IMG/VR virus record: IMGVR_UViG_2531839103_000011
Span: 1-5,576 of that record
Source of the DNA: a virus
Lineage: Duplodnaviria; Heunggongvirae; Uroviricota; Caudoviricetes
DNA: 5,576 bases
Reading direction: 5' to 3' (one strand)
Shown: piece after piece, positions 3,090-3,452 of the stretch
Numbering within the stretch: the first letter of the stretch is position 1
Layout of the letters: the number at the start of each line of letters is the position of its first letter
The notes under the pieces: model-generated
Databases searched by the model: none
Told to the model about the DNA's origin: nothing
What the model saw: only the letters and a program-made list of their open reading frames with translations
Position numbers and translations under genes: made by a program

Positions 3090-3452
3090 ATGCTGAAACA
3101 GCAGGATATGACAGAAACCGCCAGAGTTGTGTTTGATGAATTAAGCGTCACCGAACCGGCGACGGTCGGGGAGATTGCGCAGAATACGTACCTTTCACGC
3201 GAGCGCTGCCAGTTAATACTGACCCAGCTGGTTATGCGGGTCTGGCAGACTATCAGTTCGGTTGTTACAGACGCCTTCAGTCCTGAAGGCTTTTTTATTT
3301 GTGGTAAATGGGCGGCTGGTGGGTGTAAGGGGCACCCACCAGCCATCTGCTCATGCGTTGGGTTCACAAGCAAACCTCAGGCCCACTGCTTTGCGCAAAA
3401 GCAGAATGAGCCTATCAGAGACAGGCTTAATGATCCATGCTTAATACTGTAA
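3090..3452 (+). CDS. Hypothetical ORF of doubtful reality; N-terminal ~60 aa resemble a helix-turn-helix, C-terminal half overlaps a terminator and stable hairpins
   Basis: ATG 3090 with weak SD AAAGGG (3075-3080). N-terminal segment TARVVFDELSVTEPATVGEIAQNTYLSRERCQLILTQL is HTH-like with E. coli-like codon choice. The frame then runs through a strong intrinsic terminator (3273-3296) and a 12-bp perfect inverted repeat (3314-3344); the C-terminal half is Cys/Gly/Pro/His-rich and looks non-globular. Stop at 3450-3452 overlaps the methyltransferase start by 16 nt. Confidence 0.25.
   Translation: MLKQQDMTETARVVFDELSVTEPATVGEIAQNTYLSRERCQLILTQLVMRVWQTISSVVTDAFSPEGFFICGKWAAGGCKGHPPAICSCVGFTSKPQAHCFAQKQNEPIRDRLNDPCLIL
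3271..3300 (+). terminator. Rho-independent terminator (candidate tR' of the late leader, or terminator of a short regulatory transcript)
   Basis: Perfect 7-bp stem GCCTTCA (3273-3279) / TGAAGGC (3284-3290), 4-nt loop GTCC, followed by TTTTTTATTT (3291-3300). Confidence 0.55.
3314..3344. repeat. Perfect 12-bp inverted repeat GGCTGGTGGGTG-N7-CACCCACCAGCC (stable hairpin or protein-binding palindrome) containing a Chi octamer on each arm
   Basis: Arms 3314-3325 and 3333-3344 are exact reverse complements; 7-nt spacer TAAGGGG. No U-tract follows on either strand, so it is not a terminator. GCTGGTGG sits at 3315-3322 with its complement at 3337-3344. Confidence 0.6.

Follow-up and report, generated by a model that had tools for sequence, protein, structure and literature searches.

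The window analysed here is a stretch of 5,576 nucleotides (nt) of a Caudoviricetes virus (IMG/VR record IMGVR_UViG_2531839103_000011, positions 1 to 5,576). On its plus strand it contains an open reading frame (ORF) of 120 amino acids (aa) that starts with an ATG at position 3090, ends at 3452 and overlaps the ATG of a DNA methyltransferase gene (3437) by 16 nt. This ORF is real only mechanically. Comparison with related prophages indicates that it is very probably a chimera, generated by a one-base deletion in a gene for a 65-aa winged-helix protein, and that no real protein corresponds to it. The copy of the small gene in the window is a pseudogene from which the end of the recognition helix and the beta-wing have been lost. 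This pseudogene has already been annotated in RefSeq, and none of the elements that we describe is of a new kind. In annotation, the 120-aa ORF is best left uncalled, and its overlap with the methyltransferase should be regarded as an artefact.

The missing nucleotide and the fate of the reading frame

Alignment to phage phiP27 and four further prophages shows that a single G is missing from the window after codon 49 (between 3236 and 3237), which turns GTTATGGCGGG into GTTATGCGGG; in the alignment, GTTATGGCGGG of these relatives stands against GTTAT-GCGGG at window positions 3231-3240. With the G restored, the frame ends in LVMAGLADYQFGCYRRLQS-TGA, and the 65-aa translations of intact genes end in GCYRRLQS or GCYRRLPQ. 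The ancestral stop codon is the TGA at 3284-3286, which forms the first three bases of the descending arm of a terminator stem (T2, Table 1). The small gene starts with a conserved ribosome-binding site and ATG, and this ATG opens a 65-aa ORF in 116 of the 132 loci that were fetched (65 unique sequences). Seven carriers of the deletion give a product of 79 aa, and 120 aa are obtained only from the window and from an identical IMG/VR contig (L010).

Because the G is deleted after codon 49, the frame runs on through the terminator and the leader that follows it. The shifted frame misses the TGA and by chance stays open through the terminator. It then crosses the 19-pair hairpin at 3308-3354, the hairpin at 3386-3404 and the ribosome-binding region of the methyltransferase before ending at 3452.

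The region is present in about 2,100 of 5,426 complete Escherichia coli genomes and in 23 phage records, and in every record inspected a gene of 198 nt and 65 aa is annotated at the locus (phiP27 L23, WP_000917750.1 and others). A 60-mer spanning the deletion has exact matches in 347 complete E. coli genome records, and in IMG/VR eight contigs carry the deletion vs at least 120 with the intact allele. RefSeq/PGAP labels the deletion allele as a pseudogene, 'TrmB family transcriptional regulator; frameshifted' (O157:H7 PV15-279 and O103 RM8385). The copies of the deletion allele that were examined belong to the same Q-CPBP prophage lineage, and the window differs from the annotated deletion-allele genomes only in the downstream methyltransferase module.

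These distributions bear on the possibility that the G was lost only in sequencing or assembly, so that the organism itself has an intact gene. Assemblies often contain single-base indels by mistake, and many public entries are frameshifted, with 1-5 sequences on one contig and various junctions among those inspected. However, the allele is identical in many genomes and, in the copies examined, belongs to one lineage, and it is therefore an inherited mutation rather than a read error; moreover, the site is a GG doublet and not a long homopolymer. An error of this kind is very improbable. A programmed -1 ribosomal frameshift at ATG-C might also restore the 65-aa protein from the deletion allele, given that re-reading G3236 regenerates GCG and the original frame exactly. 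However, GTT ATG CGG contains no slippery heptamer and no stimulatory structure lies at the right distance, and we give this purely hypothetical mechanism practically no credence.

The intact winged-helix gene

Among the 65 unique intact sequences, the 65-aa frame contains 38 synonymous and 26 nonsynonymous distinct variants, compared with 133 and 452 possible; in the two other frames of the same sequences the numbers of synonymous and nonsynonymous variants are 11/49 and 17/45. These counts indicate that the 65-aa frame is under purifying selection and that the gene is real. The protein matches PHROG 331 (E = 1.4e-37), and a profile search of 1.84 billion representatives returned 84 cluster representatives at E <= 0.001. 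The relatives that were inspected are mostly 63-75 aa long and have the motif CQLILTQL-MAGL in common, and named homologs come from Escherichia, Shigella, Salmonella, Klebsiella and Buttiauxella. In a set of 36 diverse family members, Pfam detected DprA_WH in 22 and TrmB in 16.

An AlphaFold model of one intact homolog (P0103; pLDDT 88) contains helices at residues 9-17, 25-32 and 36-48 and strands at 52-55 and 58-61. The predicted structure is a winged helix, with a three-helix bundle and a beta-hairpin wing. A Foldseek search with this model found the winged-helix domains of IclR, MarR and OhrR proteins (TM 0.6-0.8), and the same homolog scores 23.7 on Pfam DprA_WH vs the curated cut-off of 22.9. 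A sequence search of the PDB with the family profile gave no significant match. In the window the domain is not intact, for the frameshift cuts off the end of helix 3 and the wing.

The original prediction, made from the letters of the window, had described the first ~60 codons as protein-like with a helix-turn-helix (HTH)-like segment. That description holds for the character of the segment, and the genuine codons in the window are 1-49. An N-terminal extension of the small gene, as in database calls of 94-106 aa, was considered and is ruled out by indels between an invariant upstream block and the ATG. Lambda orf-64, which occupies the same position after pR', has no similarity to the small gene.

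The prediction had also proposed that all of 3090-3452 is a structured noncoding leader or small RNA (sRNA) and holds no gene. This proposal draws on the strong and conserved hairpins and the terminator. However, codons 1-65 of intact relatives have a clear synonymous excess, the protein family extends across Escherichia, Salmonella, Klebsiella and Buttiauxella, the winged-helix model is confident, and Rfam gives no significant match in 3090-3452. Codons 1-49 are a remnant of the conserved gene, and a wholly noncoding origin has very little probability indeed.

The read-through tail

When the 120-aa translation is used as a query, the large protein clusters (for example, those with 1,869 and 412 members) match residues 1-49 only, and full-length homologs, which the prediction had named as a check, did not emerge from them. 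The few longer matches consist of 1-5 sequences each on a single contig, and those inspected have differing frameshift junctions. A Pfam search with the 120-aa form found no match. Homologs carry 1-nt indels at ~3304 and ~3385, so that from the terminator to the start of the methyltransferase no reading frame is maintained. Judged from these comparisons, the 71 codons past the frameshift are a read-through of the terminator and the untranslated leader and are not coding. The prediction had held the Cys/Gly/Pro/His-rich C-terminal half to be suspect, and this suspicion is borne out by the read-through origin of codons 50-120.

Because the tail of the ORF is read-through, the 16-nt overlap provides no translational coupling. 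The idea of a genuine 120-aa protein coupled to the methyltransferase, which was the other reading of the original prediction, could appeal to an open frame that reaches into the next gene and is preceded by a ribosome-binding site which, like its ATG, is conserved. However, the frame past codon 49 is not conserved and is broken by indels in homologs, seven of nine deletion copies (the window being counted among the nine) stop at 79 aa, and the abundant homologs end at 65 aa. Furthermore, no domain was matched, and RefSeq calls the allele frameshifted. We consider such a protein extremely improbable.

The RNA structures beneath the tail

The ORF, the terminator with its 7-bp stem and T6, a 12-bp inverted repeat, a 7-bp hairpin and the 16-nt overlap had all been listed in the prediction, and each was found in its place. 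By its structure T2 is a genuine intrinsic terminator, with a 7-pair stem at 3273-3279/3284-3290 (four G-C pairs), the loop GTCC and T6 at 3291-3296. It folds with -10.5 kcal/mol (z -3.8), and none of 200 shuffles folds as well. All 43 distinct homologs preserve its 6-bp core GCCTTC/GAAGGC, with a single C-to-U substitution that leaves a G-U pair, and the T-tract varies between 5 and 9 T in these homologs. Between 1800 and 3600 there are 6 terminator-like sites vs 1.8 +/- 1.4 expected.

The inverted repeat at 3314-3325/3333-3344 is 12 nt long and 100% complementary, and it extends to 19 pairs (13 + 6) over 3308-3354 (-34.0 kcal/mol, z -5.8). In the 43 homologs the helix cells of this hairpin are 99.5-100% paired, and the variation consists only of C-to-U or A-to-G changes in the 3' arm. 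In the hairpin of the methyltransferase leader, the pair 3387:3403 occurs as U-A, U-G and C-G. The whole stretch 3260-3440 folds with -74.2 kcal/mol (z -4.0 vs shuffles). These structures are real and beyond chance.

Across the 43 homologs, 97.8% of the stem cells pair. At the common variable stem positions only one side of the pair changes, in most cases by C-to-U or A-to-G within the 3' arm, with the exception of the loop-closing terminator pair 3279:3284, which is unpaired in 28 of 43. The one-sided changes keep G-U pairing in RNA of the plus strand and would break pairing on the minus strand. The hairpins are thus conserved in a manner consistent with plus-strand RNA, and they are not proven by covariation; they are elements of untranslated RNA or of DNA. 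The prediction had suggested weighing pairing against frame. On the one side, no significant covariation was found; on the other, the hairpins are conserved and the tail frame is broken by indels.

A search of Rfam 15 with the whole window at E <= 1 returned nothing meaningful within 2800-3450. The sole match there is P26 on the minus strand at 3313-3377 (24.3 bits vs a gathering score of 36; E 0.081), and the Rfam search proposed for the region thus yielded no curated RNA family in 3090-3452 beyond this weak hit.

The points where homology to other lineages ends are the terminator loop, ~3326 and ~3360, and therefore the hairpins coincide with mosaic junctions; the hairpin at 3308-3354 marks a recombination junction. 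An ATG at 3308 opens a 6-codon mini-ORF, MGGWWV* (window 3308-3329), whose sequence makes up the left arm of this hairpin. Other lineages (L003 2848-2922) use this start for a 24-aa gene annotated as DUF3927, and the break in homology lies inside the hairpin.

The predicted late promoter and two tandem terminators

Downstream of the Q gene, whose product is 79% identical to Q of phage 933W, the window contains a predicted late promoter pR' of the 933W type. The initial transcribed motif AAGAGTGGTTA then follows pR', and the predicted start lies near 2917. Window positions 2883-2966 align with 75% identity over 84 nt to the pR', qut and first 'possible rho-independent terminator' annotated in 933W, and the homology to pR'/qut extends from 2883 to ~2932. 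The -10 hexamer is TATGCT in the window vs TATCAT in 933W.

A first intrinsic terminator (T1) ends this segment and is homologous to the first hairpin after pR' in 933W. It also follows a lambda-type pR' in other relatives and forms the left edge of a block that is conserved across lineages; its stems differ between lineages in a compensatory way (CCCGC/GCGGG vs CCACC/GGTGG). Where relatives have a Q of the lambda type, their pR' is of that type as well (TTGATT-16-TAAATT-TGCTCT-AACGATGGG) and lies just upstream of T1; the pR' of lambda itself reads TTGACT-17-TAAATT-TGACTC-AACGATGGG. In two such loci (L014 4352-4480 and L004 1697-1850) the lambda-like pR' has the AACGATGGG pause element, and T1 lies ~45-65 nt downstream. 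The lambda-type pR'-T1 segment of relatives predicts a 65-nt RNA, and the corresponding 65-mer is present in 1636 of 5426 complete E. coli genomes.

T1 lies between pR' and T2, which makes T2 the later member of a tandem pair of terminators; counted from the predicted start, T2 lies at about +357 to +380. In Sakai 933W-type Stx phages, differential RNA sequencing (dRNA-seq) and Term-seq place tR', the source of the sRNA StxS, 258 nt from the pR' start (PMC7547250). The mapped end at +258 is the second 933W hairpin, and therefore the first hairpin must be read through at least in part. T2 is positionally analogous to this mapped tR'.

The original prediction had proposed T2 as a tR' serving a methyltransferase-tRNA-nanS late operon, and this is partly plausible. 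T2 lies downstream of the predicted pR'/qut and upstream of the late genes, and it is second in order as in 933W. However, T2 is not the first terminator met by pR' transcripts, as T1 comes first, and the product from pR' to T2 is not simply a short noncoding RNA, because the interval codes for a protein under purifying selection in relatives. In addition, the window does not contain the StxS sequence: once the promoter and first hairpin are set aside, what remains of the 933W pR'-tR' interval (L137 1250-1458) gives only 11-20-nt chance matches there (E >= 0.1).

The 5' untranslated region of the small gene includes a block of 55 nt on the plus strand (3020-3075) that is nearly invariant across 71 sequence variants and is more conserved than the coding sequence of the gene itself. 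A scan and our own reading of the block found no sigma-70 consensus on either strand, and the folding of 2900-3095 is not significant (z -0.7). This block is relevant to the view that the small gene is an autonomous 'moron', transcribed from a promoter of its own within the stretch between the terminators, and that T2 serves this gene alone and is unrelated to pR' and Q. The gene is bracketed by terminators in the classic moron layout, the segment from T1 to ~3326 travels as one piece among prophages that differ in their upstream genes (at least four types), and the 55 nt upstream of the gene are nearly invariant. However, no sigma-70-like site scoring at least 9/12 occurs on the plus strand of 2967-3089, and the block from T1 to ~3326 always lies directly after a pR'-type promoter. 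Moreover, any terminator between pR' and the late genes needs to be read through by Q-modified polymerase regardless. An independent moron is unlikely in our view, with a modest chance of being correct.

If the small gene is instead read from pR', as we favour, the promoter would fire constitutively in a lysogen, and transcripts would stop at 2966 or, when they escape T1, at 3296. Phages with an intact copy would then make the small winged-helix protein from the pR'-T2 transcript. After induction, Q-modified RNA polymerase would read through both terminators into the methyltransferase, the tRNAs and nanS. It is conceivable, although we regard it as speculative and rather improbable, that the pR'-proximal leader serves as an mRNA in intact prophages, in which leaked transcripts ending at T2 supply the lysogen with a 65-aa regulator. 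The -34 kcal/mol hairpin and the 55-nt block might then act on it in cis, for instance as a site of binding or processing through which the methyltransferase/tRNA/Stx late operon is tuned. If true, the transcript would parallel StxS and 6S, the by-product RNAs of pR', but would code for a protein. The module lies upstream of stx in many Stx2 phages (phiP27 and 45-kb Stx2a phages), and transcription past both terminators bears on basal toxin and late-gene expression, a matter to which the window adds nothing new.

Several observations weigh against the account given above. The predicted pR' scores 8/12 hexamer positions by our own count, which is below the 9/12 threshold of the scan, and it was thus unlisted; its activity and the relative efficiency of the two terminators are inferred. 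The E. coli consensus of the small protein falls below the curated Pfam cut-off (TrmB 18 bits vs 25.6). Finally, covariation in the hairpins has no statistical support: among the 43 homologs no pair is changed on both sides, and the covariation score of 0.074 vs a shuffle mean of 0.073 is reached by 290 of 500 shuffles.

A separate candidate was tried at the first terminator. HnrS is a 66-nt multicopy prophage sRNA with anti-hha activity (PMC13502914). Its placement at the first terminator was dropped. Duplex energies against the hha leader are indistinguishable from those of shuffled controls. The 65-nt pR'-terminator RNA of relatives, which is found in 1636/5426 genomes including extraintestinal pathogenic E. 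coli (ExPEC) at no more than 4 copies, misfits the reported distribution of HnrS. In a few lineages (L015, L040 and L099) the first terminator is bidirectional, with an A-tract and a T-tract, and on the minus strand (homologous to window ~2967-2980) it is preceded by TTTTCGGACAT, 11 nt that are perfectly complementary to the region of the hha start codon. The window counterpart has diverged to GTGCCCGCAAAG.

Gene neighbourhood

The genes and signals of the window (Table 1) are those of the late-control region in a lambdoid prophage of the Stx type. Its layout is Q, a cargo gene, pR'/qut, T1, the small gene (dead here), T2, a structured leader, the methyltransferase and tRNAs.

Table 1. Positions of genes, signals and RNA structures in the window.
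Feature	Position	Strand	Remarks
DUF968 gene	39-1088		
RusA	1101-1472		
Q antiterminator	1453-1833		PF06530, 174 bits
Rce1/CPBP-family membrane protease-like gene	1979-2803		A+T-rich; PF02517; PHROG 13291
933W-type late promoter pR' (predicted)	2883-2910	+	-35 TTTACG 2883-2888, 16-nt spacer, -10 TATGCT 2905-2910
First intrinsic terminator T1	2945-2966	+	Stem CCCGC/GCGGG, loop CTCTGA, T6, -9.0 kcal/mol
Pseudogene of 65-aa winged-helix protein (PHROG 331, 'TrmB family')	3090-3286	+	Alignment with phiP27 and E. coli prophages; selection; RefSeq
Mechanical ORF, 120 aa	3090-3452	+	49 genuine codons and 71 read-through codons
Intrinsic terminator T2 of the small gene	3273-3296	+	Second of two tandem terminators after pR'; hairpin holds the ancestral stop
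Very stable conserved hairpin, no U-tract	3308-3354	+	Untranslated spacer at mosaic junction
Conserved 7-bp hairpin in methyltransferase leader	3386-3404	+	3386-3392/3398-3404, -8.4 kcal/mol, z -3.3
N6/N4 DNA methyltransferase	3437-4495	+	Next real gene; PF01555 (Pfam), 149 bits; start codon conserved in homologs
Two tRNAs, DUF1737 ORF, start of nanS	downstream of methyltransferase		

In the window the CPBP gene is inserted between Q and pR', two elements that overlap in 933W (pR' with the end of Q). E. coli O103 RM8385 has a frameshifted copy of the CPBP gene. Two relatives, L004 (an Stx2k phage) and L029, carry cargo after the first pR'-proximal terminator, either a lipoprotein-like ORF or a kinase/phosphatase-like pair, and then a near-identical second copy of the terminator before the conserved block. 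This arrangement suggests that the terminator hairpin is a hotspot of insertion or recombination.

In phage 933W, a remnant of the 3' end of the same methyltransferase gene as in the window (L137 1470-1625; 78% identity to window 4385-4540) directly follows tR', which suggests that the Q-to-tRNA region of 933W may be derived from a methyltransferase-bearing arrangement by deletion or replacement. There are three tRNA genes in 933W and other relatives (ileZ, argN and argO) vs two called in the window, where positions 4612-4691, between the tRNAs, align at ~80% to the 933W tRNA region and look like a degenerate argN. Further downstream, 4878-5086 on the plus strand is a strong Rfam match to the sRNA STnc100 (175 bits), and it adjoins an AgvB/AsxR-type 'anti-sRNA' at 5088-5147 on the minus strand (AgvB 56.6 bits vs a gathering score of 56). 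Both sites lie where the stx genes sit in Stx phages.

Comparison with known systems

The closest counterpart of the window copy is the RefSeq pseudogene ECpv15279_RS05550 of E. coli O157:H7 PV15-279, which has the identical deletion and the same upstream Q-CPBP module. In the RefSeq pseudogene genomes, however, the downstream gene encodes a 237-aa HTH protein and the shifted frame ends after 79 aa, whereas in the window the methyltransferase module lies downstream and the frame is open for 120 aa. The intact homologs WP_000917750.1 and phiP27 L23 (NP_543075.1, 'TrmB family transcriptional regulator') have codons 1-49 and the terminator in common with the window.

Lambdoid phages are known to have tandem terminators downstream of pR'; in lambda, tR' (which yields 6S RNA) is 194 nt from the start. 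Two tandem hairpins also follow pR' in 933W, according to its annotation and to published mapping (PMC7547250). The window resembles 933W in that pR', qut and the first hairpin are homologous, and a second terminator, overridden by Q, lies a few hundred nt further on, upstream of tRNA and late genes. It differs in that the interval between the terminators is a conserved 65-aa coding gene in relatives and not a noncoding RNA. The distance from the start to the second terminator is ~380 nt (predicted) in the window vs 258 nt in 933W.

According to its model, the 65-aa homolog would have three helices and a wing in common with winged-helix proteins of the DprA_WH, TrmB and MarR-type winged HTH classes. 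Unlike the larger winged-helix regulators, it comprises only ~65 aa and is without a ligand-binding or dimerisation domain. For 45-kb Stx2a phages, the literature mentions a 'transcriptional regulator and DNA methylase' that lie between q and the tRNAs (PMC8456039). This order recalls the controller (C) proteins of restriction-modification (R-M) systems, in which a small DNA-binding-type protein is likewise encoded just upstream of a DNA methyltransferase gene. However, the 65-aa family has a winged-helix fold and not the Xre-type HTH of the C proteins, and its linkage to a methyltransferase is not obligate (87 loci with a methyltransferase and 20 with the 237-aa HTH protein). Moreover, unlike the arrangement of the C proteins, a terminator stands between the small gene and the methyltransferase.

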